The notes under the pieces were generated by a model. The model had not been told where the DNA came from, searched no databases, and saw nothing but the letters and a program-made list of their open reading frames with translations. Positions 12,523 to 42,994 of a stretch of DNA of 64,000 bases are shown here, piece after piece; the stretch's first letter is position 1, and every line of letters starts with the position of its first letter. A program made the translations under genes and the position numbers. Source of the DNA: Ignavibacteriota bacterium (GTDB lineage Bacteria; Bacteroidota; Ignavibacteria; UBA10030; UBA6906); assembly GCA_963801355.1 (NCBI GenBank), contig CAWDEM010000004.1, positions 768,001 through 832,000 on the forward strand, written 5' to 3'.

Positions 12523-12756
12523 GGCGTTTCCATGGTGAGATGGTGGGGGGTGACTCGTATATAAGAACCTATGGAATCGTCGCGCAAGAATCAATAATCC
12601 CCGTCCACGGTGCGCAGTTTCTTGAATCTTTCCGTCGGAATCTCCCCTTTCGAATTTTCCCTGCAGGAAGTGCTCCTTGACATTCCATCTCCACTGGCGT
12701 ATCATTTATACGATTGCCAGGCCCTGTTTTCACCCTCCCCGGAATCGAGCACGAGC

Positions 12757-24914: not shown

Positions 24915-26675
24915 TTATTCTTCGTCGGGAGAAGGAAGATTCTTGTACCACGTGAAGTAGAGGACCAGAGCCGTGAGGAGCGTGATGCCCAGCCAGAGCC
25001 CGACATGACTCCATTCCTTCAGGAACATGTAGAACGGAACGATGCCGAGGCAGAGCTGGAAGAATGAGGCCACAAAAGCGTTCACAACATCCATCCTTGG
25101 CATGGGATCATTGGACGGGACGAGTCCGCGTCGCACCGCCTCCTCCCGTACGGGTTTCCAGAAGCCGAACGGACGCACCTTAGCATAGAACCTGACCAGG
25201 GTATCCATGTCCGAAGGCGGGGTGAGCCATGTAATCAGCACGGTTACGAAAGTGCAGGAGAGCATGAGAAAAATGATGGCCCAATAGAGCGGCAGGAAAT
25301 CGAGAAATGCCTTGTGGATGCACACGACGGTTGTGGATGCTGCCACGCTCCAGATGAACGCACGCGCGCCAAAGCGCCACCAGTGCCACCGGAATGTCCC
25401 CGGAACGAGTATCATGGTCAGCATGACATAGAGCAGCATCTCCCAGGCCGAAATGATCTGTTCGTACATGAAGCTGAACGCGAACCCGACAACGATCACC
25501 GCACTGGAGACGACCATGCCGAGTCGTACAAGCGACTGTTCGGGGAGGTTGCGGGCTACGGAACGCTTCAAGAAATCATTGAGAACGACATTGCTCGTGA
25601 CGTTGATGATGGCGCTCAGGGTCGACATGAGCGCGGCGAGGAGGATCGCCATCAGAAGTCCCGCAACACCAATGGGGAGATGTTTCACAACCAGCGGCAT
25701 GATTCTTTCAGCGTCAAATGCCTTCTCTATTCCGAGATAGTACACCCCGAAACAGAGGAACGAGCCGGCGACGAGCCAGCGTATGGTATGCCCGACAGTC
25801 CAGATACCCGCCGAGAGGGAGGCCTCACGCGGGTTTTTTGCGGTGAGGAAGAAGTTAAAGTCCCATCCCAGCGGACCCGTCAACAGTCTCAAAACGAGCC
25901 AGAGCAGGCTTGCGGACATCAGCGGGCCAAAAGTAAAGTACTGCTGGTAACTCGCGGGGACCCTGGTGAGATAGTCCGGCCACAACGTCCATGAGATGGC
26001 AAGCGAATCCCATCCCGGGCTCCTGGCGGCAAGTGTGGAGAGTCCGTCGGGGAGTTGGAGTGCCGCAATAGTGAGACAGACCCCGCCGATGATGATCAGG
26101 CTGGTCTGGAAGATATCGGTCCAGATGACACCGAAGAACCCACCGAGCGTAACGTACACCCCGACAACCACAAAAATGATCAGTGTCGATTCCCACCGGG
26201 GAAGGGGGACAAACTCCTCCGCAAACTTCCCTGTGCCGACTGCGACGTAGACGAGTGTGAGCAGTAACGAGAGCAGGATGAACGCTGCCATGAGCGTCCG
26301 CACGTACTCTGTCTCCTTGTTCTTCCCGAACCGGGTTTCCATCCATTCCGCGGGAGTCATGACCCCGGACCGCCGGATATACTTCGCCTGGAATGCCATA
26401 AACATCGCCATACTGAAAAAACCCCAGCCGATATGGAAGATCCAGACCGACTTGATACCCACATAGAACATGACGCCGATGATGAGCATTGTGCCGCCAA
26501 TATCCACATAGCTCGAACAACCCGAGAGCCCGATCATCCACCAGCGCGTCTGGCGTTCTGCCAGGTAATATGCGCTAAGCCGCTTGGTGGCACGCCGCTG
26601 AAAAGCAACGCCGATGGAGACGGTGGCGAGCAGATAGATTATGACAATGACAATATCGATCGGATGGAGCTGCAT
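24915..26675 (-). CDS. Sodium:solute symporter (SSS), probably for a sugar
   Basis: 'YYLAER..WW', 'TPAEW..RFG', 'YVTLGGFFGVIWTD', 'LLAALMST'; AGGAGG upstream. Confidence 0.9.
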   Translation of the reverse strand: MQLHPIDIVIVIIYLLATVSIGVAFQRRATKRLSAYYLAERQTRWWMIGLSGCSSYVDIGGTMLIIGVMFYVGIKSVWIFHIGWGFFSMAMFMAFQAKYIRRSGVMTPAEWMETRFGKNKETEYVRTLMAAFILLSLLLTLVYVAVGTGKFAEEFVPLPRWESTLIIFVVVGVYVTLGGFFGVIWTDIFQTSLIIIGGVCLTIAALQLPDGLSTLAARSPGWDSLAISWTLWPDYLTRVPASYQQYFTFGPLMSASLLWLVLRLLTGPLGWDFNFFLTAKNPREASLSAGIWTVGHTIRWLVAGSFLCFGVYYLGIEKAFDAERIMPLVVKHLPIGVAGLLMAILLAALMSTLSAIINVTSNVVLNDFLKRSVARNLPEQSLVRLGMVVSSAVIVVGFAFSFMYEQIISAWEMLLYVMLTMILVPGTFRWHWWRFGARAFIWSVAASTTVVCIHKAFLDFLPLYWAIIFLMLSCTFVTVLITWLTPPSDMDTLVRFYAKVRPFGFWKPVREEAVRRGLVPSNDPMPRMDVVNAFVASFFQLCLGIVPFYMFLKEWSHVGLWLGITLLTALVLYFTWYKNLPSPDEE

Positions 26676-26946
26676 GATGCTGATGTCCCTCCTGCAGAAG
26701 TCGGGTGTTGTAGCGGTGGATTGGAGAAAGAGCGCGTGATCGCTGGGTACGGCGCACGGGGTCCGGGCCGGGATGGCACGATCGGTGGCCACAATATCGA
26801 CAGATAATTCCAGAAAAGAAACAACGTTGACTCTCGCATGCCCAGGCACTACATTCTAGTGTATCCGGAGTTCACCAGACCGCCGCCGCGTCGTACCAAC
26901 ACTCTACCGTCTTCGAAATCCGGTTTGCGCAAAGCCACCGATATTC

Positions 26947-28026
26947 ATGAGGTGCTGGACTATGAGGCTTAGGATCGTTGTTCCCTGTTTCTTTCTTGGA
27001 GCTCTCGGCCTTTCGTGCGGATCTTCGCTGTTTACTAGAAGCAACGAAGTCTGTGATCCCTACCGGCATGCCGGTGAACCCGGAGGTGCAGTGATGGTAC
27101 TCCGGCAGGATTCGGTGCTCTATGCAGACGCCTTTGGAATTGCGGACCTTGAGGCCGGAACGCCGAACGCGCTCACCACCAACTTCAGGCTTGCCTCGGT
27201 TACCAAGCAATTTACCGCGATGGCTGTGGTAATGCTGGCCGAACGCGGGAAACTGACACTGGAACAACCCCTGACAGACTTCTTTCCCGATTTTGCACCG
27301 GTTGGTCGAACGATCACCTTGAAGCATTTGCTCACGCATACATCCGGCATCGCAGCATATGAGGATGTGATGCCGGAGTCCACCGTCGTCCCCCTGCTCG
27401 ACAGGGATGTGCTTCAACTTCTCAAGAATATTGACAGTACCCGCGGTGCGCCGGGTTCATCGTTCGCCTACAGCAATTCCGGCTTTGCACTGCTCGCCTT
27501 GGTCGTCGAAAGGGTCTCCGGCGAATCCTTTGCCCGCTTTCTGAAGGATAACATCTTTTCGCCCCTGGGGATGGACAACACGGTGGCGTACGAGCGCGGG
27601 GTCTCCGAAGTTCCACAGAGAGCGTACGGGTACTCACCTGCTACAGTCAAGGCGGGACGACCTGCGCTGACAGACCAGAGCATGACCAGTTCTGTCCTCG
27701 GCGACGGCGGCATCTATTCATCAGTGACCGACTTGCGAAAATGGAATGCAGCGCTTGCCGCTGGCTCTCTCGTGTCCGCACAATCGATGAGCGAAATGCT
27801 CTCACACCACGCAACTATTGAAGAAGGGAGGATCTGGTACGGATATGGATGGTACATGAGGAGTCTTGACGGTATTCCGGCCTATTACCACGGCGGCTCA
27901 ACGGTCGGCTTCCGGACATTCATTCTGCGCATTCCCGATCGTGCTCTGACTGTCATCGCGCTGTTCAACCGATCAGATGTACTCGCGGAGGACATCGGCT
28001 GGAAGCTTGCACGGCTGTACCTCTGA
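26947..28026 (+). CDS. Serine hydrolase, beta-lactamase/class C PBP family, probable lipoprotein
   Basis: SxxK 'ASVTK', 'LLTHTSG', YxN 'YSNSG', 'HGG'; lipobox-like 'LGLSC'. Confidence 0.9.
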   Translation: MRCWTMRLRIVVPCFFLGALGLSCGSSLFTRSNEVCDPYRHAGEPGGAVMVLRQDSVLYADAFGIADLEAGTPNALTTNFRLASVTKQFTAMAVVMLAERGKLTLEQPLTDFFPDFAPVGRTITLKHLLTHTSGIAAYEDVMPESTVVPLLDRDVLQLLKNIDSTRGAPGSSFAYSNSGFALLALVVERVSGESFARFLKDNIFSPLGMDNTVAYERGVSEVPQRAYGYSPATVKAGRPALTDQSMTSSVLGDGGIYSSVTDLRKWNAALAAGSLVSAQSMSEMLSHHATIEEGRIWYGYGWYMRSLDGIPAYYHGGSTVGFRTFILRIPDRALTVIALFNRSDVLAEDIGWKLARLYL

Positions 28027-28055
28027 TGTGATACGGAGCCAGGGAGACTTTTGGT

Positions 28056-31000
28056 ATGAGAAGATTCCTCGTTGTCCTACTTGTGAATTCCTTCATGCTG
28101 TCAATCGCGGCCGGACAGGCCGGTACACTCCTCAACAGTTTTCGCTCTCCCGCTGACTCGCTCCGTCCATGGGTCTATTGGGTCTGGATGGACGGGAACT
28201 TGAGCCGGGAAGGGATTACCGCTGACCTTGAAAGCATGAAACATGCCGGCATCGGCGGAGCCATCATTATGGAGGTGAATGTCGGCATCCCGCAAGGACC
28301 GGTGAAATTTATGAGTCCCGAGTGGCGGCGGCACTTTGGGCATGCTATCGCTGAAGCGCAACGACTGGGTCTGGAGATTACGCTGATCACCGGCCCCGGG
28401 TGGACAGGAAGCGGCGGGCCGTGGGTGAAACCGGAACAGGGAATGCAGCACATTGTGTCAAGCGCCACGATCATGCGCGGACCGAAACTTTTTGCGGATA
28501 CGCTGTCACAGCCCGTACGACGCCCTGCCTTCTTCGGCGACGGAGTACTTCCTCCCGGGCAGGAAAAAGAGAAGAACAAATTCTATCGGGATGTCGCTGT
28601 CCTCGCATACCCGACACCCACGGGTAACGACCGTATCGCGGGCATCGACGAAAAGGCGCTCTACGTGCGGGCACCGTATTCCTCCATGACCTCGGTGCCG
28701 TCATACATTCCCTCCTTCGCAGACTATCCCCCCACCGCCCCTGGGGGGGCCATCGACACGTCTCACATCGTGAATCTCAGTAACCATCTGGATGCCAAGG
28801 GAGTCTTCACCTGGGATGTGCCCGGGGGGAACTGGACGGTCTTACGGCTCGGCCGGACGAGCACCGGCGCGAACACCCGTCCGGCGCCGACGCCCGGATT
28901 AGGATTGGAGTGCGACAAGCTGGACACTGCGGCACTCAATGTTCACTTTGATGCCTTTGTCGGGGCCTTACTGCGGGAAATCGGCCCGCGGGATGCATCC
29001 GCCACAGGCGGCTGGAAAATGCTGCACATTGATAGCTGGGAAATGGGTGCACAGAACTGGACGGGAGCCTTCCGGACGGAATTCAGAGCGCGCCGCGGCT
29101 ACGATCTACTGAGCTATCTCCCTATTCTGACCGGTTCAGTGGTCGAGTCCCGCGAAGTCTCCGAACGATTCCTCTGGGACCTGCGCCAGACAATCCAGGA
29201 ACTCATTCTGCAGAATCATGCAGGACATCTCAGGGAATTGGGACGCCGGAATGGATTCGGCATATCCATCGAGCCTTACGATATGACGCCCTGCGCCGAT
29301 ATGAGCCTGGGCTCCATTGCGGACGTCCCCATGTGCGAGTTCTGGCTTTACGGCTTCAATACCAGTTACAGTGTCATTGAGGCATCGTCTGTAGCTCATA
29401 CCTGTGGCAGGACTGTCGTAGCGGCTGAGGCGTTTACATCAAGCGACGTTGAACACTGGGATGCCTACCCCGGCTCGATGAAAGTGCTGGGGGATTGGGC
29501 TTTCTGTGCAGGTGTGAACCGTTTCGTTTTCCATCGGTATCAGCATCAACCGTGGCCTGCATTGCGCCCGGGGATGACGATGGGCCCATACGGCATACAT
29601 TGGGAGCGGACCCAGACGTGGTGGGATATGGCCCCCGCGTACCACGCCTATCTGTCACGATGCCAGCTCATGCTGCGACAGGGTCTTCCTGTAGCGGATG
29701 TGTGCTATCTGGTCCCGGAGGGTGCCCCGCAGGTATTCCGTCCGCCGTCATCGGCAGTGCGTGGCAATCCCCCCGATCGGCGTGGGTACAATTTCGATGG
29801 CTGTGCCCCGGAAATCCTCATCGCACGCATGTCAGTTGAAAATGGTGATCTCGTCCTCCCTGATGGAATGCGGTATCGCGTTCTGGTACTTCCTGAACGG
29901 GCGACTATGACGCCGGCGTTGCTGCGGAAAGTCAGCAGTCTTGTCGCAAAAGGAGCAACGGTCATCGGACCACGACCACGGAAGTCGCCCGGTCTGTCAG
30001 GGTATCCGCACTGTGATCGGGAGGTCGCTGAAATCGCCGGTCAAGTGTGGGGGGAATGCAACGGCATGGATGTTACAGAGCATACCTTTGGAAAGGGTCG
30101 GGTGATCTGGGTGCGGTCGACCGGAACTCCATACGATCCGGAGAGGCAGGATACGGTCGGGAGAGAACCATGCCGCATCATGCGGCTCGAAGCTTCGGGC
30201 ACGGCCATGTACGCCGGCAACTTCCGGAAGCGCACATCAGCGGATGGGATGGGTGAGCCGGAAGCAGAGCAATATGGTGACTTCGCTCTGGTCGAAAAGG
30301 TCTTGCGCAATAAAGGTGTGCAACCGGACTTTGAAACCGATGCATCGCTGCGCTACACACACAGAAGATATGGTGAAACCGAGATCTATTTTGTGGCGAA
30401 CCCTGAAGAGCGTGTGGTCACTGCCGCGTGCGTCTTCCGCGTAAGCGGAAAACAGCCGGAACTCTGGGATCCGGTGGAGGGAATTTCGCGCAAGCTGCCG
30501 GAGTTCGTGGACGTGCACGGCAGGACATCGATTGTTCTCCGTTTTGAGCCGCATCAATCCATCTTCATCGTGTTTGCAGAGACTCCCGGAAAGGAGCAAC
30601 ATGCCGGCAGCAATTTTCCGCGAATGCACAATGCCTTGAAGCTGGATGGCCCGTGGCAGGTAACCTTTGACACTGTGTGGGGTGGCCCCGGAACAATCAC
30701 ATTCCGGCATCTCGATGATTGGAGCAAACGGAAGGAAAAAGGGGTGAAGTTCTTCAGCGGGACAGCTACGTACAGAAAGACCTTTGATTTGCCTGTGGCA
30801 ATCTCCGCTCACCTCTCCGATGGGGGACACAGTCGGGCCGGCGTCTGGCTGGATGTCGGCAAGGTCATGAATCTCGCTCGTGTACGTCTGAACGGACATG
30901 ATCTTGGGGTACTCTGGACGTCCCCGTGGCGGTTGGACGCACGCTCTGCACTCACGCCCAAGCACAATATCCTGGAAATCTCCGTTGCGAATCTCTGGCG

Positions 31001-31214
31001 CAACAGGCTGGTGGGAGACGAACGTCTGCCGCCGGATGCCGACTTTGCCCCAGGCGGGAATATCCTTCGCTGGCCTGAATGGCTTGTGAAAGGAGAACGC
31101 CGTCCGACCACCGGGCGTTTTTCCTTTGCCAGCTGGAAACATTTCGGCAAGGACTCGCCACTACTCCCTTCCGGCTTGATCGGACCGGTGCGCATTCTTC
31201 TTGCATATCCATGA
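28056..31214 (+). CDS. GH106 family glycoside hydrolase (alpha-L-rhamnosidase-like), secreted
   Basis: 'RPWVYWVWMDGN', 'ITADLESM', 'GPGWTGSGGPW', 'GLECDKL', 'DSWEMG', 'AAEAFT', 'NLWRNRLVGD', 'SGLIGPV'. Confidence 0.9.
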   Translation: MRRFLVVLLVNSFMLSIAAGQAGTLLNSFRSPADSLRPWVYWVWMDGNLSREGITADLESMKHAGIGGAIIMEVNVGIPQGPVKFMSPEWRRHFGHAIAEAQRLGLEITLITGPGWTGSGGPWVKPEQGMQHIVSSATIMRGPKLFADTLSQPVRRPAFFGDGVLPPGQEKEKNKFYRDVAVLAYPTPTGNDRIAGIDEKALYVRAPYSSMTSVPSYIPSFADYPPTAPGGAIDTSHIVNLSNHLDAKGVFTWDVPGGNWTVLRLGRTSTGANTRPAPTPGLGLECDKLDTAALNVHFDAFVGALLREIGPRDASATGGWKMLHIDSWEMGAQNWTGAFRTEFRARRGYDLLSYLPILTGSVVESREVSERFLWDLRQTIQELILQNHAGHLRELGRRNGFGISIEPYDMTPCADMSLGSIADVPMCEFWLYGFNTSYSVIEASSVAHTCGRTVVAAEAFTSSDVEHWDAYPGSMKVLGDWAFCAGVNRFVFHRYQHQPWPALRPGMTMGPYGIHWERTQTWWDMAPAYHAYLSRCQLMLRQGLPVADVCYLVPEGAPQVFRPPSSAVRGNPPDRRGYNFDGCAPEILIARMSVENGDLVLPDGMRYRVLVLPERATMTPALLRKVSSLVAKGATVIGPRPRKSPGLSGYPHCDREVAEIAGQVWGECNGMDVTEHTFGKGRVIWVRSTGTPYDPERQDTVGREPCRIMRLEASGTAMYAGNFRKRTSADGMGEPEAEQYGDFALVEKVLRNKGVQPDFETDASLRYTHRRYGETEIYFVANPEERVVTAACVFRVSGKQPELWDPVEGISRKLPEFVDVHGRTSIVLRFEPHQSIFIVFAETPGKEQHAGSNFPRMHNALKLDGPWQVTFDTVWGGPGTITFRHLDDWSKRKEKGVKFFSGTATYRKTFDLPVAISAHLSDGGHSRAGVWLDVGKVMNLARVRLNGHDLGVLWTSPWRLDARSALTPKHNILEISVANLWRNRLVGDERLPPDADFAPGGNILRWPEWLVKGERRPTTGRFSFASWKHFGKDSPLLPSGLIGPVRILLAYP

Positions 31215-31276
31215 GATTGGTCGAATCCTTGCAGTTTGATCGTTGATTTTCGCTGATAGATGGCGTACGTTGTAGT

Positions 31277-32221
31277 ATGAATGCTTCGGGCAATGTATTC
31301 AATATCCAGCGGTTTTCCATCCACGATGGCCCGGGAATACGGACAACGGTGTTTCTCAAGGGATGCACGTTGGCCTGCTTCTGGTGCCATAACCCCGAGG
31401 GAAGACACACATATACAGAAATTCAGTTCTTCCCTGAACGGTGTATTACATGCGGCGAGTGTGTGCGGGTGTGTCCTCACTCCGCACATGAGATTCGCGA
31501 CGGTGTGCATGTCTTTCGCCGTGATCTGTGTCAGAATCACGGAGCATGTGCAGAAGCATGCTGTGCGCAGGCACTGCAGCTCGCCGGTCAGGTCATGAGC
31601 GTTGCACAGGTCATGGAGGAGGTCCTCCGGGACAGGCCATTTTACGAGTCCTCGGGCGGAGGAGTGACACTTTCCGGCGGCGAGCCGTCGTTGAGCAGCT
31701 CCTTTGCACTGGAAATCCTCAGACAATGCAAGAATCATCATCTGCACACCGCCATTGAAACGTGCGGCGATTGCCCGTGGTCGTTCCTGGAGCCGCTTCT
31801 GCCCGTGACCGATCTGATCATGATGGACGTCAAGCATATGTCGGGAGACCGCCACCGGTCGGCAACAGGCAGGTCCAACGAGCGCATCCTGGACAATGCC
31901 CGCACACTCGCTTCGGGTACTGTACCTGTCATATTCCGGACACCGGTTGTGCCGACCGTGAACGACTCTCCGGAAGATATCAGAGAGATTGCTTCGTTCG
32001 TGAAGGAACTGATAGATCTGCGAAAGGCCTACGGCATCGGGATGGACGGTGACGCCGGCATCACGTACGAACTCCTGACGTTTCACAGGCTGTCGTCTGA
32101 CAAATACCGGAGCCTCGGACTGGAGTACAAGGCCTCAGGCATGGACTCTCCATCAAAAGAACAGATGCAGATGCTCGCAGGCGTGGCGCGCAGTCTCGGG
32201 ATTGCTGTCAGCGTCCGGTAG
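31277..32221 (+). CDS. Glycyl-radical enzyme activating enzyme (radical SAM) with ferredoxin insert
   Basis: 'IQRFSIHDGPGIRTTVFLKGCTLACFWCHNPE'; insert 'CITCGECVRVC' and 'CQNHGACAEAC'; 'GGGVTLSGGEP', 'TAIETCG'. Confidence 0.95.
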   Translation: MNASGNVFNIQRFSIHDGPGIRTTVFLKGCTLACFWCHNPEGRHTYTEIQFFPERCITCGECVRVCPHSAHEIRDGVHVFRRDLCQNHGACAEACCAQALQLAGQVMSVAQVMEEVLRDRPFYESSGGGVTLSGGEPSLSSSFALEILRQCKNHHLHTAIETCGDCPWSFLEPLLPVTDLIMMDVKHMSGDRHRSATGRSNERILDNARTLASGTVPVIFRTPVVPTVNDSPEDIREIASFVKELIDLRKAYGIGMDGDAGITYELLTFHRLSSDKYRSLGLEYKASGMDSPSKEQMQMLAGVARSLGIAVSVR

Positions 32222-32263
32222 GCGCGCAGAACAACCGCACGGAACCATGAACGAAGGGAATCA

Positions 32264-34498: not shown

Positions 34499-35619
34499 TT
34501 GGCCATACTTCCCCGGAAATCATGACGACTACCGCCCGTCAGCGATTCCTGCATTACGTCAGGGATCCCGCATCGTCACCGCCGATTGTTTCTCCGTTCC
34601 TTCCACATCCTGATGTTATTAACGCGACGCTGGCCTCCACACGCCTGCCGGTCACGGACGACCCCGTCGCCAATGAAATCAGGCTGGCACAACACCTCGG
34701 CTATGAGCCGATGTTCATGACGGACTGTTCGGGCCTGATCTTCAATTGGCGGATCGATGAGTCACGATCGGATGGTGTGGATGTGGTCCGGACCATCGAC
34801 ACGGAACGGGGTGAGTGGGTGCGCCGGTCGCCAAGAGTCGAAATGCCGTGGAGTGACGAGTCGGGCTGTCCGGTCAATACTCCTCACGATCACGCAATGC
34901 TCGTGTCCGCGTGCGATCAGATCGATGACCGGAACGATGAACTCAGGATGTACTTCCGGACCTGGCGGGAGAAGGTGGGTGAGAACGGCGTCATTGTCCT
35001 GGGGCATCCCCATCCGGCATGGCTTGGCTACCAGATCAGTCCATCGCAGATCTTCTATCAGTGGACGGACGATCGCGAGGTGTACCTGCGCAGCATGGAG
35101 GCCGTGTTCCGTGCTTCCCTGAAGGTGATGGCAATCGCAGTGGAGGAGGGGATCGATTTCATGAGTGATTCCAGCTATGGGCTGGAAATGACGTCCCCGG
35201 CATTGTTTGCGTCGATGGATCTTCCGTATATCCGCGCTTTTGCACAATGGACGAGAGAACACGACAGCCTGTTCTGGTATCACAATTGCGGTTTTACCCG
35301 TCAGCTCATCAAGGATGGCACGTTCAACACACTCGGAGCTGACGTGATTGAGACCATTGCGCCGCCACCGGAAGGCGACAACGATCTGGCGGAGTCGCGT
35401 CGCTGTCTTGATCCGGGCATCTGTTCCAAAGGAAATCTGAATCTTCAAATATTGCGGGATGCTGCGCCGGAACAGATCTCCAGAGAGGTGCGGAACATGG
35501 TACACGCGGTCCGCGGCTTCGCCCACATCCATTCCACGGCGGATGCGGTGCTCCCCGGGACGCCGCCGGAGAATTTCATTACCTTCGTAAACACTGCACG
35601 GGACGCCGCCGGACGATAG
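34495..35619 (+). CDS. URO-D/MtaA-fold protein (not HemE)
   Basis: 'SPALF..DLPYI', 'WYHNCG', 'IETIAPPPEGD.DLAE', 'KGNL', 'GTPPENF'; lacks the HemE 'WxMRQAGR' motif. Confidence 0.8.
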   Translation: MIGHTSPEIMTTTARQRFLHYVRDPASSPPIVSPFLPHPDVINATLASTRLPVTDDPVANEIRLAQHLGYEPMFMTDCSGLIFNWRIDESRSDGVDVVRTIDTERGEWVRRSPRVEMPWSDESGCPVNTPHDHAMLVSACDQIDDRNDELRMYFRTWREKVGENGVIVLGHPHPAWLGYQISPSQIFYQWTDDREVYLRSMEAVFRASLKVMAIAVEEGIDFMSDSSYGLEMTSPALFASMDLPYIRAFAQWTREHDSLFWYHNCGFTRQLIKDGTFNTLGADVIETIAPPPEGDNDLAESRRCLDPGICSKGNLNLQILRDAAPEQISREVRNMVHAVRGFAHIHSTADAVLPGTPPENFITFVNTARDAAGR

Positions 35620-35651
35620 ATACCGGGCGATTCTTTCATCACTGGTGAACT

Positions 35652-36935
35652 ATGAGACACGCATACGCGAACACTCTGTTTCTTTCTCTTCTCATCCTTT
35701 CCTGCGGCAAAAAAAGCGAGATGGTTGAAATCCAGGACTGGAATTTCGGCGGGAGGCCGAACCTGATGGTCTGGCTGCGTCAGAGGACCGAGAGCTTCGA
35801 GGCAACGCATCCAGGAATCAAGGTTGTCCAGAGTGACAAGAGCTGGAACATGATCCGCGAGATCCTGTATACAAGCTTCAGCACCGGGACGGGGCCGGAT
35901 GTTGTGAATACGCACGCCAACTATGCCTCTGAATTCGGTGAAGCGGGCTACTACTATCCCGTGAACAAATTCCCGGATTTCGATTCGGTAAAACAGTGGT
36001 TCGTCCCTCAGCTGTTCGAATCGACACACTACAAAGGCAACTACTACGGTTTGCCGTCAAGCGCCATTGCGTTTGTTCTGGTCTGCAACAGGCAACTCTT
36101 CGACGCAGCACACATGGTGCCTCCGAAAACCTGGTCGGAATTTCGCAGCGCGGCAAAGCGTCTCACCAGGGACACCAACGGCGACGGCCAGATCGACCAG
36201 TTCGGTCTCGTCCTTATAGGCGGCGACAAGGGGGGATTCGCCTACCGTATGGTGCCATTTTTCTACAAGGCGGGAGCCGACTTCATGTCTGACGATCTCA
36301 CGAAGGTGGTGTTCAATTCGCCTGCGGGTGTCGCGGCATTGACGCTGTTCGCTGAAATGTATCAGGTGGATCACTCGATCGCCCCGGGGTTTCTTGCGTA
36401 TGGACATTCCGAATCCAATGACGTGTTTTGCGGCAACAAGGCGGCGATGGCAATCGAAGGCCCCTGGATCAGGGCGATGGTGAATGAGATGAGCCCCGGC
36501 AAAGACGTGTACGTCGTCAGCGTACCTGTTCCTGACAACATGCTTGATCAATACGACACGCTCCCCACCCTGCAGGATATGGTGATGTATTCCATCAACG
36601 CGCAGTCCAAGAACCTGGAAGCTTCGTGGGAGTTTATCAAGTATCTCCGCAACGAAGAGGCCGATATGGCCTGGATCCGGGAAGATCTCGGTGCAATTGC
36701 CACGACACACTCTGCGCTGAACAGCCCTGAAGCGCAGAACATCAAAGATCTGCCCCTTTACATCAATGAACTCAAGCATGCGAGACCGTTGCCTCCTCAT
36801 CCCAAAATCGTCGCACTCACAAGCAATACCTTCACCCCGTTCTGTCAGAAGGCGATCGTCGGTGAGCTGACGCCCAAAGATGCGCTCGACCAGGCCGCCC
36901 GGGAGGCACAGGAGGTCATCGAAGGCACGAAATGA
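35652..36935 (+). CDS. Carbohydrate ABC transporter substrate-binding lipoprotein
   Basis: 'ILSC' lipobox; 'GTGPDV', 'YYGLP', 'PPKTWSE', 'AAMAIEGPW', 'AS WEFIKYL'-type CUT1 motifs. Confidence 0.9.
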   Translation: MRHAYANTLFLSLLILSCGKKSEMVEIQDWNFGGRPNLMVWLRQRTESFEATHPGIKVVQSDKSWNMIREILYTSFSTGTGPDVVNTHANYASEFGEAGYYYPVNKFPDFDSVKQWFVPQLFESTHYKGNYYGLPSSAIAFVLVCNRQLFDAAHMVPPKTWSEFRSAAKRLTRDTNGDGQIDQFGLVLIGGDKGGFAYRMVPFFYKAGADFMSDDLTKVVFNSPAGVAALTLFAEMYQVDHSIAPGFLAYGHSESNDVFCGNKAAMAIEGPWIRAMVNEMSPGKDVYVVSVPVPDNMLDQYDTLPTLQDMVMYSINAQSKNLEASWEFIKYLRNEEADMAWIREDLGAIATTHSALNSPEAQNIKDLPLYINELKHARPLPPHPKIVALTSNTFTPFCQKAIVGELTPKDALDQAAREAQEVIEGTK

Positions 36936-37801
36936 AAAAAGCTACTCCTTATCTGCTTCTGCTCCCTGCACTGCTGTTTACGGCATTTGTTCTGGGCTAT
37001 CCCCTCGTTCAGAATCTCGTGAACAGCGTGAGGGACGTGAGCCTGGTGAGTGGAGTGGGAGGATGGGTTGGACTCTCCAACTACGCCCACGTTCTGGATG
37101 ACCCGCTCTTCCTGAGTTCTTTGCGGAACACACTGATCTACGCGCTGGTTGGCACCCTCCTGGCTCTGGTGATCGGGCTCGGGTTTGCCCTCCTGCTGAA
37201 CATGAAAATCGGCCGGATCACAACCATCGCCTCTTTTCTCTATACCATACCATGGGTCATCTCGCCGGTGGTGGCGGGTTTTTCCTGGAAGTGGCTCCTG
37301 AACGACCATTTCGGAATTATCAACTACTGGCTCTCCTCGGCAGGCCTCATCGACCCCGGCACCTCATGGCTCGGAGATCCCCGGACCGTCCTTGCCTGCG
37401 TCATCTTCGCCAGAGTGTGGCAGTTCTATCCGTTTGCGATGGTGATGTTCCTTGCGGGGCTCCAGGCTATTCCCCTGGAAGAATATGAGGCTGCTGCTGT
37501 CGATGGAGCCACGATGGTCCGGAAGTTTTTCCATATCACACTTCCCAATCTGAAACCGGTGTTCTCTGTGCTCCTCGTTCTCGGTGTGATCTGGAGCTTC
37601 AATGATTTCAATATTGTGTTTGTCATGACGCGTGGGGGGCCGATGAATGCCTCCATGGTCCTTCCCGTACTCGTCAGAGAATTCTCGTTCGTCTTTTTTG
37701 ATCTCGGTAAAGGTTCGGCGCTCTCCATTATGACCTTCATGCTGCTTGTCTCCCTCTCCTTCCTGTATCTCAGAGTCCTCTCCGGGAAGGAATCCGCATG
37801 A
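36932..37801 (+). CDS. Carbohydrate ABC transporter permease
   Basis: EAA loop 'LAGLQAIPLEEYEAAAVDGA..FFHITLP'; 'MTRGGP'. Confidence 0.93.
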   Translation: MKKATPYLLLLPALLFTAFVLGYPLVQNLVNSVRDVSLVSGVGGWVGLSNYAHVLDDPLFLSSLRNTLIYALVGTLLALVIGLGFALLLNMKIGRITTIASFLYTIPWVISPVVAGFSWKWLLNDHFGIINYWLSSAGLIDPGTSWLGDPRTVLACVIFARVWQFYPFAMVMFLAGLQAIPLEEYEAAAVDGATMVRKFFHITLPNLKPVFSVLLVLGVIWSFNDFNIVFVMTRGGPMNASMVLPVLVREFSFVFFDLGKGSALSIMTFMLLVSLSFLYLRVLSGKESA

Positions 37802-38610
37802 AACGATATGCTCTCACGGCCCTGATCATTCTGTTGTCTCTTCTTGTGTTGCTTCCGTTCCTGTGGATATTCTCCACTTCCCTGAAGCCGCTGTCGGAGG
37901 TGAACCGGTATCCCCCGGAGTGGTTCAGTTTGAACATGAGCCTGAAACCGTACAGGGACATGTTCTTCTTTCTGCCGTTTTCCATTTATGCGTTGAACAG
38001 CATGATCGTGGCGTCATCGGCGACCATCATTACGCTACTCGTTGGAAGTCTGGGGGCGTTTGCGTTCTCCAGGTTCCAGTTTGCAGGTAAACGCATCTTC
38101 CTTCTGGTGTTTCTTCTCTCGCAAATGCTGCCCGGCGCTTCCGTCATCATTCCGCTGTTCCAGCTGCTGAAAGAGATCGGGCTCTATGATACGCATGTCG
38201 GATTGATTCTTGTCCATTCGTCCGTCTTGTTGCCGTTTGTCATCTGGTTGCTGTACGGCTTCTTTCAGGGTATCCCCAGGGAGATAGAAGACGCGGCGCT
38301 GATTGACGGATGCTCAAGATTGAGTGCTCTCCGCAGGGTCATATTGCCGCTGGCCCTCCCCGGCATCGGGGCTACGGCACTGTTTGCTTTCCTCGGCTCC
38401 TGGAACGAGTTTTTCTTTGCCCTGATATTGACATCGTCGGATGCCACAAAAACCATCCCCGTCGGCATAGGTCTTTTTGTCGGGGAATACAACGATCTCT
38501 GGAACCAGATGGCCGCGTCGGCGGTGCTGTTCAGTCTGCCACCGTTAGTGCTTTTTGCCCTCATGCGAAAGACATTCGTTAAAGGGCTGGCAGCGGGAGC
38601 GGTGAAATGA
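37798..38610 (+). CDS. Carbohydrate ABC transporter permease
   Basis: 'FFQGIPREIEDAALIDG', 'SWNEFFFA', 'FVKGLAAGAVK'. Confidence 0.93.
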   Translation: MKRYALTALIILLSLLVLLPFLWIFSTSLKPLSEVNRYPPEWFSLNMSLKPYRDMFFFLPFSIYALNSMIVASSATIITLLVGSLGAFAFSRFQFAGKRIFLLVFLLSQMLPGASVIIPLFQLLKEIGLYDTHVGLILVHSSVLLPFVIWLLYGFFQGIPREIEDAALIDGCSRLSALRRVILPLALPGIGATALFAFLGSWNEFFFALILTSSDATKTIPVGIGLFVGEYNDLWNQMAASAVLFSLPPLVLFALMRKTFVKGLAAGAVK

Positions 38611-38658
38611 AGGGATTGATGAGAAGTGGATTTGACCACTGAAACCCAAGGAGGGGTC

Positions 38659-40155
38659 ATGCAGAGAACGATGCGGTTCGCCATTTGCGCCTCGGTGTTG
38701 TCGGTCGGGGCGAACGTTGCCTTGTGTCAGGGCGTCGTCATCGGACGCGACGATGTGACGTTGATGTTTGCCATCGGGCAAGCTGTGACATATCACCATG
38801 ACACATTGACCACATCCGCGGATATCGGTGCGCCGGGTGGCCCGGCAAGCTGGGATTTCACCGGCCTCACAACCCAGTTCGTTGAGACACGGACAGGTGT
38901 GGCTGTACAGTCCACGCTGTATGCTGCCGGGTTCCCTCAGGCCACACACGCCCTTCTTGATCCAGCACTTGCCATGCGCCTGAATACCGGTTCTCTTGGA
39001 TGGGCAACGCTGACGTCCCCCCAGGCATACTATTACTATAGTATAGGCGATGACCTGAACTACTACGGCGTTCAAGGAAACGGGATTGGATTCCTCGACA
39101 GTTCACCTGGCACGCCCATTCCTTTTTCAGCCCGGTGGTTTGGTCTGCCCTCGGCGATCGAGTATCGCTTCCCCGTCGAACTGTCAAAGAGCTGGTCCTT
39201 CGATTATGTCGACTCGCTTGTCGGTACCGCCACGTTGCCCGGTTTCCCCGTCCCCCTGTCGTTGACAATGGGCGATCACTACTCCGTCGCGTGTGAAGTG
39301 GACGCCTACGGCACACTCACGTTGCCCGGTGGGACCACGCGGGAGGCGTTGCGCATTAAGAGAGTGAGCACAAAAAACAACAGTCTGGTGGAAGCCGCGT
39401 ACACTATTGTGACAAGGAATGGGGCCGCTGTGCAATTGAAGGTGAACGATCCTTCCGCGACCAGCGGTGCCGTTTCAGTGAGCGGTATACGATGGACGGA
39501 AGGTGTGCCTGACGAACTGGTCCCGGTGCAACTGGCGAGTTTCACGGCAACGCAGCAGGAAGGAAGCACTGTTGATCTCGCGTGGACCACTCTCTCCGAG
39601 ACCAACAATTTCGGATTCTACGTTCAGAGAAAAGACTCAGAGGAGGGAGAGTTCGCGGAATTGACGGGTGCTTTTATCCCCGGCCACGGCACGACCATTG
39701 TTCCCCGGAACTACACCTATCGCGATGTTACCGGGGGGATCGGTGCGCGGTGGTACCGGCTGAAGCAAGTTGACCTTGATGGCACCGCTCATCTGTCGGA
39801 GCCGGTGCAGGTGAACGCTGTAACGGCTGTCCCGGCTATTGCTCCCGCGGTGTATGCGCTGTCGCAGAACTACCCGAACCCTTTCAATCCTTCGACAACG
39901 ATCCGCTACAGTCTGCCATATCGCTCTCATGTCAGACTGACGGTCTTCAATGCCCTCGGCCAGCAGGTTGCACAACTGGTCGACGGTGAAGTGCAGGGCG
40001 GGCAACATGAGGTACAGTTCGATGCGTCAGGCCTTGCCGGCGGCGTGTTGTACTACAGAATGCAGGCACGCCCTCTGGACTCCACCGTCGGGCGTGAGTC
40101 GGGGAGCGGAGGCGGGACTTTTCTCGAGACGAAGCAGCTGATACTTCTGCGGTGA
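38659..40155 (+). CDS. Secreted protein with T9SS type A sorting domain
   Basis: Signal peptide; 'VPVQLASF..LAWTT.SETNNFGFYVQR..YRLKQVDLDG' Ig module; CTD 'QNYPNPFNPSTTI'. Confidence 0.87.
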   Translation: MQRTMRFAICASVLSVGANVALCQGVVIGRDDVTLMFAIGQAVTYHHDTLTTSADIGAPGGPASWDFTGLTTQFVETRTGVAVQSTLYAAGFPQATHALLDPALAMRLNTGSLGWATLTSPQAYYYYSIGDDLNYYGVQGNGIGFLDSSPGTPIPFSARWFGLPSAIEYRFPVELSKSWSFDYVDSLVGTATLPGFPVPLSLTMGDHYSVACEVDAYGTLTLPGGTTREALRIKRVSTKNNSLVEAAYTIVTRNGAAVQLKVNDPSATSGAVSVSGIRWTEGVPDELVPVQLASFTATQQEGSTVDLAWTTLSETNNFGFYVQRKDSEEGEFAELTGAFIPGHGTTIVPRNYTYRDVTGGIGARWYRLKQVDLDGTAHLSEPVQVNAVTAVPAIAPAVYALSQNYPNPFNPSTTIRYSLPYRSHVRLTVFNALGQQVAQLVDGEVQGGQHEVQFDASGLAGGVLYYRMQARPLDSTVGRESGSGGGTFLETKQLILLR

Positions 40156-41276
40156 CACCTCCGCGATCGCACACGACCGGGACGGGTTTCTGGTCGGTAG
40201 TGTCCCAGGACCCTCTGTTTGACCTCGAGATAGTAGGAATAGTTGTCGTATGTCACATCCGGCGGGACCCTGTGATCGACGCAGGGAATATACCGCCCCT
40301 GATCTATCAGGGGCCGCAGGCGATCCATTTCCGCATCGATGGCATTCTTGCCCGCAATGAGGGCGTGTTTGTCCACACCGCCGAAGAGGAGGATCGCGGG
40401 CAGATCTTTCCTCAGCTTGAATACATCAGTATGAGCAACTTCGAGGGGGAACATGCAGTTGATGCCTGCTTCGAGCCAGCCGGGTGCGAGCTCGTGGATG
40501 CGCCCGTCGCAATCCAGCACGTTGACGTCAATACCATGCTCCGTCAGTGCGCGGGTAATTCGGCTGTAGCGGGGGATCATCATCTCTTTGAAAAGACGGG
40601 GAGAGAGCAGCGGGCCCCTGTTGTAGCACATATCCTCCCACCACCAGGCAAGGTCCACACCATGGACCGGCAGCGCCCGATCGATCAATGTGAGAGTTAG
40701 CTCGATAAGGTGGTCCATCATTTCCTCGACCCATGTCCGGTCGGTCATCAGGGCGATGGAAATGCCCTCGACGCCCATCCAGTTTCTCAGCCAGCCATAG
40801 AGTGAGCCGGCATGGAAAAAGACAGGCGATCCATCGACTTGCGCCTGCCGCAGCAGTGCTTCTACGTCGCCAATCCTCCCGTTCGTGTCCGGATCAAGAC
40901 GCTCCCGGCGTAAGCGCTCCCAGTCCTGCCGGGTTTCCAGCCCGAACTTGACATAGCGCGGCATGCTCGAGTGTTCGGAGAACACCTCGCAGATGTTTCC
41001 TTCATCGTCCCTGATCAATTCGCGGTCCCCATGCCTGGAGAGAACAGTCCGCTCAAAGGCGGGAAACAGCCCGTTTGATATCGGAAGCTGTTTGAACAGC
41101 GTGATGCCATCCAGGCCGAAGTGTTCCTCGGCGGTGGCATCTGTCGTCACTGTGACGGGCAGCCCCTGTGAGTGCCAGGCGGAAAGAGTTTCGCTCCAGT
41201 AGCCGAACTCCACGTTTGGAATCCGGTCGGTGCTCTGACCCTTGAGAACTGCAAGTATTTGTTTGCGGACGGTCAC
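40053..41276 (-). CDS. URO-D/MtaA-fold protein (second, divergent copy)
   Basis: GTG start with GAAGG RBS; 'EFGYW.ET', 'GWLRNWMG', 'WWEDMCYNRGPLLSP', 'DCDG', 'GGVDK', 'PCVDHRVPPDV'. Confidence 0.83.
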   Translation of the reverse strand: MTVRKQILAVLKGQSTDRIPNVEFGYWSETLSAWHSQGLPVTVTTDATAEEHFGLDGITLFKQLPISNGLFPAFERTVLSRHGDRELIRDDEGNICEVFSEHSSMPRYVKFGLETRQDWERLRRERLDPDTNGRIGDVEALLRQAQVDGSPVFFHAGSLYGWLRNWMGVEGISIALMTDRTWVEEMMDHLIELTLTLIDRALPVHGVDLAWWWEDMCYNRGPLLSPRLFKEMMIPRYSRITRALTEHGIDVNVLDCDGRIHELAPGWLEAGINCMFPLEVAHTDVFKLRKDLPAILLFGGVDKHALIAGKNAIDAEMDRLRPLIDQGRYIPCVDHRVPPDVTYDNYSYYLEVKQRVLGHYRPETRPGRVRSRRCHRRSISCFVSRKVPPPLPDSRPTVESRGRACIL

Positions 41277-41461
41277 GGAACCTTCAGGAGGAGAGTAGAG
41301 ATCGGGCGGCACAAGTCGCATCCACCATGCAAAGGTACGCAGTCTCGATACAAACCTCAAGGAGCGGGTGTGCGGCAGTCGCATTCGTGATTCTTCTCCC
41401 CTATATTGGTGGAGTCACCGTGATTCATAGAACGTGGTCTACGAGATTGAAGGAAAGAACG

Positions 41462-42994
41462 ATGTCGGAACCGGCAGAGCCTTGTTCGCGTGCGAATATG
41501 GTCAGCTATTCTGTAGGGGAATGCGCCAATTCTTTGATAATGAATTCGCTTTTCGGGTTTGCCATGCTGTACTACACGGATGCCCTGGGACTGAAGCATT
41601 CAGACGCCGGCATCGCCATGGCAGTAGCAGTGTTCTGGGATGCCATCACCGATCCCGTGATGGGTCATATCACGGACAACACCAGAAGCAGATTCGGACG
41701 GCGTCATCCCTATATCCTGCTGGGAGGGCTGGCAGTGATCGCCGCCTATGTGTTTCTGTGGTATGTCCCGAGTGTGTTTAGAACGAATGCGGAGACGTTG
41801 TTCTGGTATCTTGTCGGCATCAATCTTGTTCAGCGGACAGCCATCACCGTCTTGTACATCCCATACACGGCGCTCGGATTTGAAATGTGCTCCGACTATG
41901 GCGGTCGGGTAAGACTGCAGGGGATCAGATCCGCGATGAATATGCTCGCGAACATTCTGGGTCCGGGGCTGGCATGGTCCGTTTTCTTCTCTCACAACGA
42001 AATCGTCAGGGCGACATCGGTTGAGGAGAACTACTTGCGTATGGGACTAAGTTTCGCCGCTGTGTCCCTCTGCTGCATTCTCTTTGTCGTCGTCGCAACA
42101 AGGAAGTATATGAAGGACAGCAGGCACATGCCGGTCAAGGGTGCTTCTGTCGGCGGCTTCCTGCGGAATATGAAGGAGATCGTTTCGGATTTCTATCCCC
42201 GGTACGCGTTCGTGTTTATTATTGTCGTCACGGTGGGCATTGCACTTGTCAGTTCGTTACAGATGTATCTCTATGAGCATTTCATGAGATTCAGCGGTAT
42301 TGAAAAGTCGGTGGTTCATGGAGGGAGCATGGCTGGTTTTGGTGCGGGTGCATTGATGGCGTCTTTTCTGTCGGGAAAACTGGATAAGAAGGGCGCGGTG
42401 ATATTTGCGGGATCGCTGAGCGTTGCCTGCAATGTCGTGCTTGCCGCGCTGTTTCTTCCGGCCATCTTGACTCCCGGACAGTCTGTGACGATCTCCGCAT
42501 TGACCATTCCGTATGCATTTGTCATTTTTGCGCTTCTCCACGGGCTCTACTGGCTGGGCAACGGTATCATCTTTCCTACCGGCACATCCATGATGGCTGA
42601 CGTTTCGGAAATCAATGGAATCAAGACTGGAATCAACAAAGATGGCGCGTATGCCGCTGTTTTCAGCTTCGCCCAAAAATGTGCGATCTCTATCGCCGTC
42701 CTGGTGAGTGGATACAGCCTGACATTGATCGGGTTTGAACCCGGAAAGGAGGTCGTTCAGGCTCCGGAGACCCTGTGGAGGTTGTGTGCTGTGACACTGC
42801 TGGCAGGTCCTATGATCTCGCTCCTTTCACTAGCTTTGATATGGCGGTACCCGGTCACCCGCGAATTGCTCATGAACTTGAGGTCCGGAAAAGCTGCAGC
42901 GCTGAGGAGTAAGTATACGGCCCAAGCTCCTTGCGGCCCATGCTCGTCAAACGCACGTTGCAGTTATACCTTCGCTGAAGTAAGTTCTGTGTAG
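41462..42994 (+). CDS. Glycoside-pentoside-hexuronide (MelB-like) MFS transporter
   Basis: 'WDAITDPVMGHITDNTRSRFGRRHPY', 'IPYTALG', 'SMMADV', 'FAQK'. Confidence 0.9.
   Translation: MSEPAEPCSRANMVSYSVGECANSLIMNSLFGFAMLYYTDALGLKHSDAGIAMAVAVFWDAITDPVMGHITDNTRSRFGRRHPYILLGGLAVIAAYVFLWYVPSVFRTNAETLFWYLVGINLVQRTAITVLYIPYTALGFEMCSDYGGRVRLQGIRSAMNMLANILGPGLAWSVFFSHNEIVRATSVEENYLRMGLSFAAVSLCCILFVVVATRKYMKDSRHMPVKGASVGGFLRNMKEIVSDFYPRYAFVFIIVVTVGIALVSSLQMYLYEHFMRFSGIEKSVVHGGSMAGFGAGALMASFLSGKLDKKGAVIFAGSLSVACNVVLAALFLPAILTPGQSVTISALTIPYAFVIFALLHGLYWLGNGIIFPTGTSMMADVSEINGIKTGINKDGAYAAVFSFAQKCAISIAVLVSGYSLTLIGFEPGKEVVQAPETLWRLCAVTLLAGPMISLLSLALIWRYPVTRELLMNLRSGKAAALRSKYTAQAPCGPCSSNARCSYTFAEVSSV

Follow-up and report, generated by a model that had tools for sequence, protein, structure and literature searches.

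A glycyl radical enzyme with an atypical cysteine loop, encoded with a URO-D-fold protein and a sugar importer, as a lead to undescribed anaerobic sugar chemistry

What does a glycyl radical enzyme (GRE) do when it is encoded beside a sugar importer and a URO-D-fold protein, and carries a catalytic loop that differs from those of its nearest characterized relatives? The question is raised by a 64,000-nucleotide stretch of the genome of an Ignavibacteriota bacterium (assembly GCA_963801355.1, contig CAWDEM010000004.1, positions 768,001 to 832,000; C4:768001-832000 in our numbering, hereafter the window), a genome of 4.8 Mb in 8 contigs that is rated 100% complete and whose closest relatives among named records are metagenome-assembled genomes (MAGs) labeled Bacteroidota or Ignavibacteriota. 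Six adjoining genes of this window, encoding a GRE activase, the GRE, the URO-D-fold protein UROD1, a substrate-binding lipoprotein (SBP) and two ABC permeases, make up a conserved unit. We read this unit, with a probability of about one half, as an accessory operon for the anaerobic use of an imported, unphosphorylated sugar-like compound, and it probably marks an undescribed oxygen-free breakdown of that compound. So far, the characterization of each new GRE has brought to light an anaerobic reaction for which oxygen or B12 had been considered necessary, and the operon offers a good lead to new anaerobic sugar chemistry that can be put to the test.

A glycyl radical enzyme with an atypical cysteine loop

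The GRE gene (32264-34498, plus strand) encodes a protein of 744 residues that matches PF02901 with 268 bits and PF01228 with 46.5 bits. Its AlphaFold2 model (pLDDT 94.6) superposes on solved GREs over 675-691 residues with Z-scores of 32-38, the matches over ~685 residues comprising glycerol dehydratase, PflD, propanediol dehydratase, CutC and YbiW (Z 35.8-37.7); by structural alignment, identity to solved enzymes of the pyruvate formate-lyase (PFL) type amounts to 17-23%. The radical machinery is intact: C398, the loop (thiyl) cysteine, aligns with the loop cysteines of PflD, HpsG and glycerol dehydratase and is invariant across 80 aligned GREs, and G720, the radical glycine, lies within the motif R-V-T-G720-F-S-A. 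D412 aligns with, and thus keeps, D447 of glycerol dehydratase. What sets the protein apart is the cysteine loop itself, which reads G-C398-H-W400-C where PflD, HpsG and glycerol dehydratase read G-C-V-E. C398, W400 and G720 are all invariant in an alignment of 17 family members, among which the second loop cysteine (+3) is not conserved; nor is there an adjacent Cys-Cys pair. According to a 2026 review (PMC13450708), C-x-E is kept in all characterized 1,2-eliminases and isomerases, where the glutamate is bonded to the substrate, two loop cysteines occur only in PFL and TdcE, and whole GRE clades lack validation.

Family profiles place the enzyme at a similar remove. Its best NCBIfam equivalog is TIGR01774 (PFL2-3 subfamily), which scores 250 bits against a cut-off of 678, and the models for HpsG (203 bits against 1000), HypD (180 against 1100), CutC (159 against 1050), HPAD (100 against 1150) and indoleacetate decarboxylase (111 against 1100) all remain below theirs. 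The top solved sequence relative is PflD (8yjo, E 5e-55, about 23% identity), with weaker matches to MasD (E 2e-20), PFL (E 7.6e-20) and benzylsuccinate synthase (E 3.5e-17). The original prediction, made from the letters of the window and their translations, had called this GRE atypical, and the C-x-W loop, the sub-threshold score with every equivalog and the distance even from PflD bear it out; the enzyme clusters with no characterized GRE, and its sequence supports a position outside all characterized groups.

Source records name its homologues 'pyruvate-formate lyase', 'formate C-acetyltransferase' or 'pyruvate formate lyase family protein', as would suit an ordinary PFL, or another characterized GRE, standing among unrelated neighbors. 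We find this scarcely credible: TIGR01255 (PFL) reaches 83 bits where 994 are required, and all other equivalogs fall far short as well; conservation in the G-C-H-W-C loop, which has no Cys-Cys pair, is confined to C398 and W400; PFL ranks among the weaker matches to solved enzymes; and the six-gene order described below recurs across phyla.

The loop variant is widespread. A word-index search recovered, among 8000 candidates, 1719 homologues at E 1e-10 or better, the best 120 of which are 72-100% identical to the window GRE and nearly all ~744 residues long; homologues of that length with 72-98% identity number more than 120. With E 1e-30 as the limit, an exhaustive search of 1.84 billion representatives returned 920 proteins; 12 full-length representative clusters score 538-1021 bits at 38-59% identity, two score 344-354 bits, and the other full-length GRE representatives listed all stay at or under about 270 bits, most of them with 26-32% identity. 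On these data the C-x-W GREs form a separate family, a large one that goes under the name of pyruvate formate-lyase or formate C-acetyltransferase in public records, that is devoid of the catalytic glutamate of the nearest classes, and whose members are linked with the uptake of sugars in bacteria and archaea represented by MAGs alone. One member, P0126, is a natural fusion of 1052 residues in which an activase (the N-terminal ~300 residues) precedes the C-x-W GRE.

The six-gene unit and its inheritance

Within the unit, all genes of which lie on the plus strand, the GRE is preceded by its activase (31277-32221), a radical SAM protein with a ferredoxin-like insert that matches TIGR02494 with 344.5 bits (cut-off 174), and followed by UROD1 (34522-35619), a cytoplasmic protein of 365 residues (PF01208, 49 bits) that is a candidate MtaA-like metalloenzyme. 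Next come the SBP, a lipoprotein of the CUT1 sugar ABC type (35652-36935; PF01547, 120 bits), and permeases 1 (36932-37801) and 2 (37798-38610), which both match PF00528, are 65-95% and 68-95% identical across related loci, respectively, and each overlap the preceding gene by 4 nt. The best NCBIfam models for permease 1 are of the UgpA/GlcT/MalF type and those for permease 2 of the GlcU/MalG/UgpE type, all scoring under cut-off. The run holds no gene for an importer ATPase, and a shared ATPase elsewhere in the genome was not searched for.

By open reading frame (ORF) listing, Pfam and NCBIfam, the co-oriented plus-strand run to which the unit belongs comprises nine genes (26947-40155) that are separated by gaps of 15-62 nt or overlap by 4 nt. 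Pfam and NCBIfam confirm every gene named in the original prediction at the place assigned to it, and the co-oriented, closely spaced run it described stands; it had, however, missed a serine hydrolase gene (26947-28026) and a gene for a protein with a type IX secretion system (T9SS) sorting domain (38626-40155), and GRE and UROD1 do not overlap. The UROD1 ORF opens at 34495 but its homologues start at the ATG at 34522, which therefore leaves a 23-nt gap after the GRE gene. Signal or lipoprotein peptides are present on the hydrolase, the GH106 enzyme described below, the SBP and the T9SS protein, and on none of GRE, activase and UROD1.

A scan of species-representative genomes, all of them MAGs, provided 46 related loci, labeled Bacteroidota/Ignavibacteriota, KSB1, Opitutaceae, Bacillota, Bathyarchaeota/Nitrososphaeria and Spirochaetaceae, with which the window proteins were compared by tblastn. 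The activase adjoins the GRE in 42 of the 46. Where at least 1.2 kb of downstream sequence makes a locus evaluable for it, a URO-D-family gene follows within 1.8 kb on the same strand in 30 of 36 cases; with at least 2.7 kb, an SBP lies downstream of the GRE in 28 of 34. Linkage of URO-D, SBP and activase is seen in records labeled Bacteroidota, Ignavibacteriota, KSB1 and Bacillota, and the conserved connection of URO-D and sugar-importer genes that had been foreseen is thus kept in the homologues. Full-text literature searches found no published link between a GRE and a URO-D-fold protein.

The evaluable loci that have no URO-D gene are one from Bacteroidota (L023), two from Opitutaceae and three from Bathyarchaeota. 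In the two Bacillota loci (L033 and L034), the GRE is 51% identical and the URO-D gene that follows it a paralogue, and the surroundings hold two further URO-D genes, GH2, GH38, a regulator and ABC permeases; the KSB1 locus (L032) has two extra URO-D genes upstream, together with an MFS transporter, an alcohol dehydrogenase and a xylose-isomerase-like barrel. An SBP and a GFO/IDH/MocA oxidoreductase accompany the GRE in the Opitutaceae loci. The remaining flank genes differ between loci. In one Bathyarchaeota locus an Amidohydro_2 barrel gene (L037:9015-9890), which has no counterpart at that place in bacteria, directly precedes the GRE, and an alpha-L-fucosidase and an aldehyde:ferredoxin oxidoreductase are encoded downstream. 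A PfkB-HAD fusion that lies 3' of the operon in 9 loci was considered as a seventh pathway gene and rejected; it resembles HldE-type heptose-phosphate kinases, and its orthologue in the host genome (67% identical) is on another contig, for which reasons we read its position as lineage synteny.

How closely UROD1 goes with the GRE is apparent from 41 genomes of the same order. At a threshold of E 1e-100 the GRE is matched in 12 of them, 11 times at 72% identity or more; the twelfth match (G007:C7:33602-35800, in a related genome that is 61% complete) is a 44% identical paralogue with three in-frame TGA codons. A UROD1 orthologue (64-100% identical) is found in 11 of the 41 genomes, the same 11 that have the GRE orthologue, and lies immediately 3' of the GRE in every one (11/11), a coincidence that, among genomes that are kin, is not a statistical test. 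The pair is patchily distributed, occurring in 10 of the 24 genomes of the family and 3 of the 4 of the genus, so that GRE and UROD1 must have been gained or lost together several times.

Outside this set the bond loosens. Three Opitutaceae genomes and the L023 genome have no UROD1 orthologue, their best URO-D proteins being 25-29% identical, and yet their GREs are 71-72% identical to that of the window; UROD1 is therefore dispensable. In a quick maximum-likelihood tree of 37 rows, rooted at the midpoint only and leaving out ten loci that offer no full-length ORF with both motifs (L017, L021, L024, L030, L036, L040 and L043-L046), the Opitutaceae rows nest within the Bacteroidota/Ignavibacteriota set (support 97) and L023 and L015 are sisters (98), placements by which the absences of UROD1 look secondary. 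The earlier proposal that URO-D proteins supply a step adjacent to that of the GRE may hold for UROD1, which is strictly co-inherited among relatives yet missing from genomes with GREs this similar.

The same observations bear on whether UROD1 is a separate enzyme at all or an accessory subunit of the GRE, comparable to the small subunits of benzylsuccinate synthase or HPAD. Strict co-occurrence, adjacency in 11 of 11 related genomes and the mere 23 nt between the two genes are what a subunit would lead one to expect; the 71-72% identical GREs that have no UROD1 orthologue, its losses looking secondary on the quick tree, speak against one. Moreover, UROD1 is a full URO-D barrel of 365 residues with metal motifs common to at least 17 paralogues in the genome, whereas the known GRE small subunits are, in the excerpts of PMC13450708, small Fe-S or Fe proteins. 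A subunit role for UROD1 is, in our estimate, quite improbable.

UROD1 and the candidate chemistry

The AlphaFold2 model of UROD1 (pLDDT 91.2) has the URO-D fold, and Foldseek ranks MtaA (4ay7, E 7e-12, TM 0.64 and 0.68) and human UROD (3gw3, E 4e-12, TM 0.64) about equal, at 13-15% identity. Searched against the PDB, a profile of 37 UROD1 relatives finds MtaA at 3e-12, then CdmB at 5e-9 and then HemE at 6e-9. The residues H254-N-C256 align with H-I-C of MtaA, and the cysteine of the MtaA P-G-C-G motif aligns with D341 in S-T-A-D; the His-x-Cys pair and the distal cysteine of MtaA are zinc ligands. UROD1 shares the fold with MtaA and CdmB, its H-x-C aligns with that of MtaA, and it is unlike MtaA in having no corrinoid gene nearby, an aspartate at the position of the third-ligand cysteine and only about 15% identity. 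The NCBIfam MtaA models overall give it 26-31 bits against cut-offs of 235-400 (MtaA/CmuA TIGR01463, 26.5 against 235.4; NF040654, 28.3 against 400). With HemE it shares the fold and a Pfam match over the C-terminal half, PF01208 being covered at profile positions 171-345 (101-341 in UROD2, the second URO-D-fold protein of the window); but UROD1 is encoded in a sugar operon and not with heme genes.

UROD1 is one of many such proteins in its host. The genome has 21 PF01208 hits; the only true HemE among them scores 462.6 bits over positions 3-345, against 49.6 bits for UROD1 and 36.6 for UROD2 in this genome-wide scan. When the 20 non-HemE paralogues are aligned, 11 have H-x-C and 6 have H-x-D, and most have His or Asp at or beside the position of D341; UROD2 reads L-D-C, the histidine of the motif being absent. 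At least 10 of the 20, including the two in the window, stand beside carbohydrate genes, among them GH3 (with a 4-nt overlap), GH78 with RhaT, a CUT2 ABC system with GalT, ROK and PfkB kinases, GH1, acetyl-xylan esterase and others, with L054:3224-6891, L060:109-6947 and L056:532-9566 as examples. The host genome has, in its sugar loci, an expanded set of URO-D-fold proteins with metal motifs. Two of the paralogues belong to corrinoid systems: at L066:5646-11338 (G000:C8:1392000-1407000) a corrinoid protein, an MTHFR with a C-terminal domain, a pterin-binding methyltransferase and a full-length URO-D-type gene adjoin a GH88, making a candidate system for corrinoid-dependent demethylation beside a glycoside hydrolase, and at L059:375-10092 (G000:C4:1260001-1277000) an SSF transporter, an SDR, a URO-D-type gene (160 bits), RACo, DUF1638, a homocysteine S-methyltransferase-type gene and a corrinoid protein form a second corrinoid methyltransferase system.

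These likenesses might suggest O-methylated sugars, with UROD1 acting as a methyl-sugar:corrinoid methyltransferase (MT I type) on a corrinoid protein encoded elsewhere and the GRE acting before or after demethylation. The top PDB profile matches of UROD1, slightly ahead of HemE, are the corrinoid-dependent methyltransferases MtaA and CdmB, the latter described in the excerpted text of PMC13222342 as a corrinoid-dependent chloromethane methyltransferase; the genome has two corrinoid-protein systems that include URO-D genes, one of them next to GH88; half or more of the non-HemE paralogues neighbor carbohydrate genes; and an optional demethylation would fit the dispensability of UROD1. Against this, the window has no corrinoid protein gene, and none was found in the flanks of 14 Pfam-scanned related loci, where the lone B12-binding hit is a radical SAM protein (L022). 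The third zinc ligand of MtaA, a cysteine, is replaced by aspartate and the MtaA/CmuA model stays far under its cut-off; demethylation alone would, besides, yield an ordinary sugar and leave the GRE without a task. We therefore hold an O-methyl-sugar route to be unlikely.

On the reading that we prefer, an accessory operon for an imported sugar-like compound, the SBP and the two permeases would bring the compound into the cell, presumably in unphosphorylated form since the importer is of the ABC type. The activase would place a radical on G720 of the GRE, and the thiyl radical at C398 would abstract hydrogen from a substrate carbon that bears a hydroxyl group. A neighboring C-O bond would then be cleaved or rearranged in a reaction of the eliminase or isomerase type, with an acid/base set that differs from the usual one in having Trp400 in place of the glutamate, D412 being kept. 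UROD1 would contribute a dispensable side step, either the removal or transfer of a small substituent or the processing of the GRE product.

One of the closest known systems is the 'anhydroglycolysis' of PflD and YbiW, which cleave a C-O bond in 1,5-anhydromannitol-6-phosphate and 1,5-anhydroglucitol-6-phosphate. The window GRE has the same fold (Z 37.6 to PflD and 35.8 to YbiW), likewise has genes for sugar uptake and for an activase of the eliminase type beside it, and likely also has a carbohydrate substrate. Unlike PflD and YbiW it has C-x-W for C-x-E and 744 residues against 776-826, at 22-23% identity, and its operon includes a URO-D-fold partner and no aldolase gene.

The GRE might be a ring-opening C-O isomerase that acts, as PflD and YbiW do, on a cyclic ether, here a free anhydro-alditol or a similar compound taken up by the ABC importer. 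PflD is its best solved sequence relative, and both PflD and YbiW are among its best structural matches. In the Opitutaceae loci, GRE and SBP go together with a GFO/IDH/MocA oxidoreductase, a family that includes anhydrofructose reductase. The substrates of PflD and YbiW are, according to the excerpts of PMC13450708, sugars whose ring opens only by radical chemistry, which suits such a role. However, the glutamate that PflD and YbiW use to deprotonate the C2 hydroxyl (same excerpts) is a tryptophan here, sequence identity to the two is low, and the core has no aldolase for a deoxy-ketose product; the PfkB-HAD protein encoded after the operon in 9 loci looks heptose-phosphate kinase-like and is encoded on another contig in the host genome. 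This anhydro-sugar route, too, we consider unlikely.

The B12-independent glycerol and 1,2-propanediol dehydratases are the top structural matches (1r8w, Z 37.7; 9rcp and 5i2g, both about 37), and the aspartate that the GRE shares with glycerol dehydratase has been described above. Unlike these diol dehydratases, the window GRE has no C-x-E and is accompanied in the window by neither shell genes nor an aldehyde dehydrogenase. The original prediction had noted the absence of shell, aldehyde dehydrogenase and corrinoid genes from the window, and profile scans of genome and window agree: none of the 5 genome hits to microcompartment shell genes (PF00936) and none of the 7 to B12-binding genes (PF02310) falls in the window, and no aldehyde dehydrogenase family member occurs among the scanned window ORFs of at least 100 residues. 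The shell hits lie at three places (C4:100052-100583, with hits at 100052 and 100356; C4:1444945-1445172; and C8:154347-154856, with hits at 154347 and 154623), so the organism may have shell-enclosed pathways, though not at this GRE.

Several points weigh against the operon being what we take it for. The glutamate that, according to PMC13450708, deprotonates the substrate hydroxyl in all characterized eliminases and isomerases is missing, so that C-O cleavage of their kind is not assured. The solved proteins closest to the SBP (5ci5 and 9xf5, E about 1e-33 to 1e-32) bind ligands as unlike as tagatose and a cyclic glucan, and allow therefore no inference of its ligand; the substrate may be a deoxy-sugar, an O-methylated sugar or a polyol. 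As kinase, aldolase and dehydrogenase genes are all absent from the core, its genes do not show how the compound would enter central metabolism. The linkage counts given above come from loci that are mostly related MAGs and are thus not independent of one another, and the Opitutaceae and L023 genomes show the GRE persisting where UROD1 is absent.

If we go one step further, the C-x-W enzymes might constitute a further catalytic class of GRE, beyond those of the 2026 review, that performs a radical conversion of a free carbohydrate for which no oxygen-independent enzyme is known, with a metal-dependent URO-D-fold enzyme as its dedicated helper in soil and sediment Bacteroidota. Examples of what such a class could do are the cleavage of a sugar ether, an anhydro ring or a methoxy group by way of an acid/base set around Trp400, D412 and D157. 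We offer this as a tentative extension, which seems to us rather less probable than not. The operon itself provides a route to the substrate, in that it encodes an SBP for ligand screening, an activase and a co-inherited partner enzyme, and if the reaction is new it would add an extra step to the anaerobic carbohydrate turnover of anoxic habitats.

Lineage-specific surroundings of the core

Upstream, the run is flanked by a divergent gene for a sodium:solute symporter (SSS) family transporter (24915-26849, minus strand; PF00474, 99 bits). The run itself opens on the plus strand with a beta-lactamase-fold serine hydrolase (26947-28026; PF00144, 219 bits) that carries a lipoprotein-type signal peptide, with L-S-C in its N-terminus, and for which all NCBIfam beta-lactamase and peptidase models remain far under cut-off. 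It is followed, also on the plus strand, by a GH106 glycoside hydrolase (28056-31214), a member of the alpha-L-rhamnosidase family with a signal peptide, which matches PF17132 with 637.5 bits (cut-off 29) and has a rhamnoside jelly-roll domain (130 bits). The model for the characterized equivalog BT4145 scores 247 bits against a cut-off of 1300, and no specificity is therefore assigned. The last gene of the run (38626-40155, plus strand) encodes an exported protein of 509 residues with a T9SS C-terminal sorting domain, which is recognized just below cut-off by both Por_Secre_tail (24.5 bits, cut-off 27) and TIGR04183 (19.9 bits, cut-off 23); its residues 1-410 match no Pfam family, and no atlas match exceeds 0.76.

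Convergent with the run lies UROD2 (40053-41384, minus strand; PF01208, 38.6 bits), whose 3' end overlaps the T9SS gene by ~100 nt and extends ~48 residues past the end of its relatives, and divergent from UROD2 is a cation symporter of the GPH/MFS_2 family (41327-42994, plus strand; PF13347, 215 bits) that reaches 120 bits with TIGR00792, under its cut-off. A promoter and terminator scan gave counts no higher than the shuffled expectation, the consensus used not being that of Bacteroidota. A search of sequencing data sets by sampled words listed no RNA set, and the DNA sets share at most 0.21 of the words. Elsewhere in the window are a heparinase II/III-like gene (10483-12705), a GH3 gene (47495-49624) and a hybrid two-component sensor with AraC output (58848-63089), for none of which a link to the operon was seen.

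These flanking genes had been counted into the pathway by the original prediction, which spoke of a GH106 enzyme, three sugar-uptake systems and two URO-D-fold proteins; the loci tell otherwise. For the SSS transporter, the 46 loci offer a single match, a 26% identical fragment in L031, and the SSS, GPH and UROD2 genes are common at most to L001, the closest locus, whose GRE is 92% identical. The hydrolase (87% identical), the T9SS protein (85%, full-length) and the GPH transporter (88%) are each shared with L001 only. The match to UROD2 there (L001:10146-11678) is broken up into three, perhaps because one of the two genomes carries a frameshift.

GH106 finds no match beside the GRE in 45 of the 46 loci and, found only in this window, was rejected as a family trait of the pathway. 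The three sugar-uptake systems and the link to rhamnosides, none of which is conserved, are therefore features of the lineage and not of the pathway. In L001 the activase gene comes right after that of the hydrolase, and all that lies between them (L001:1081-1197) is a remnant of 39 codons whose product is 64% identical to the C-terminus of GH106; the gene was therefore probably deleted there and not gained here. As a local addition in the genus, the exported GH106, the hydrolase and the T9SS protein probably act outside the cell on a rhamnose-bearing glycan and release or prepare the substrate from it.

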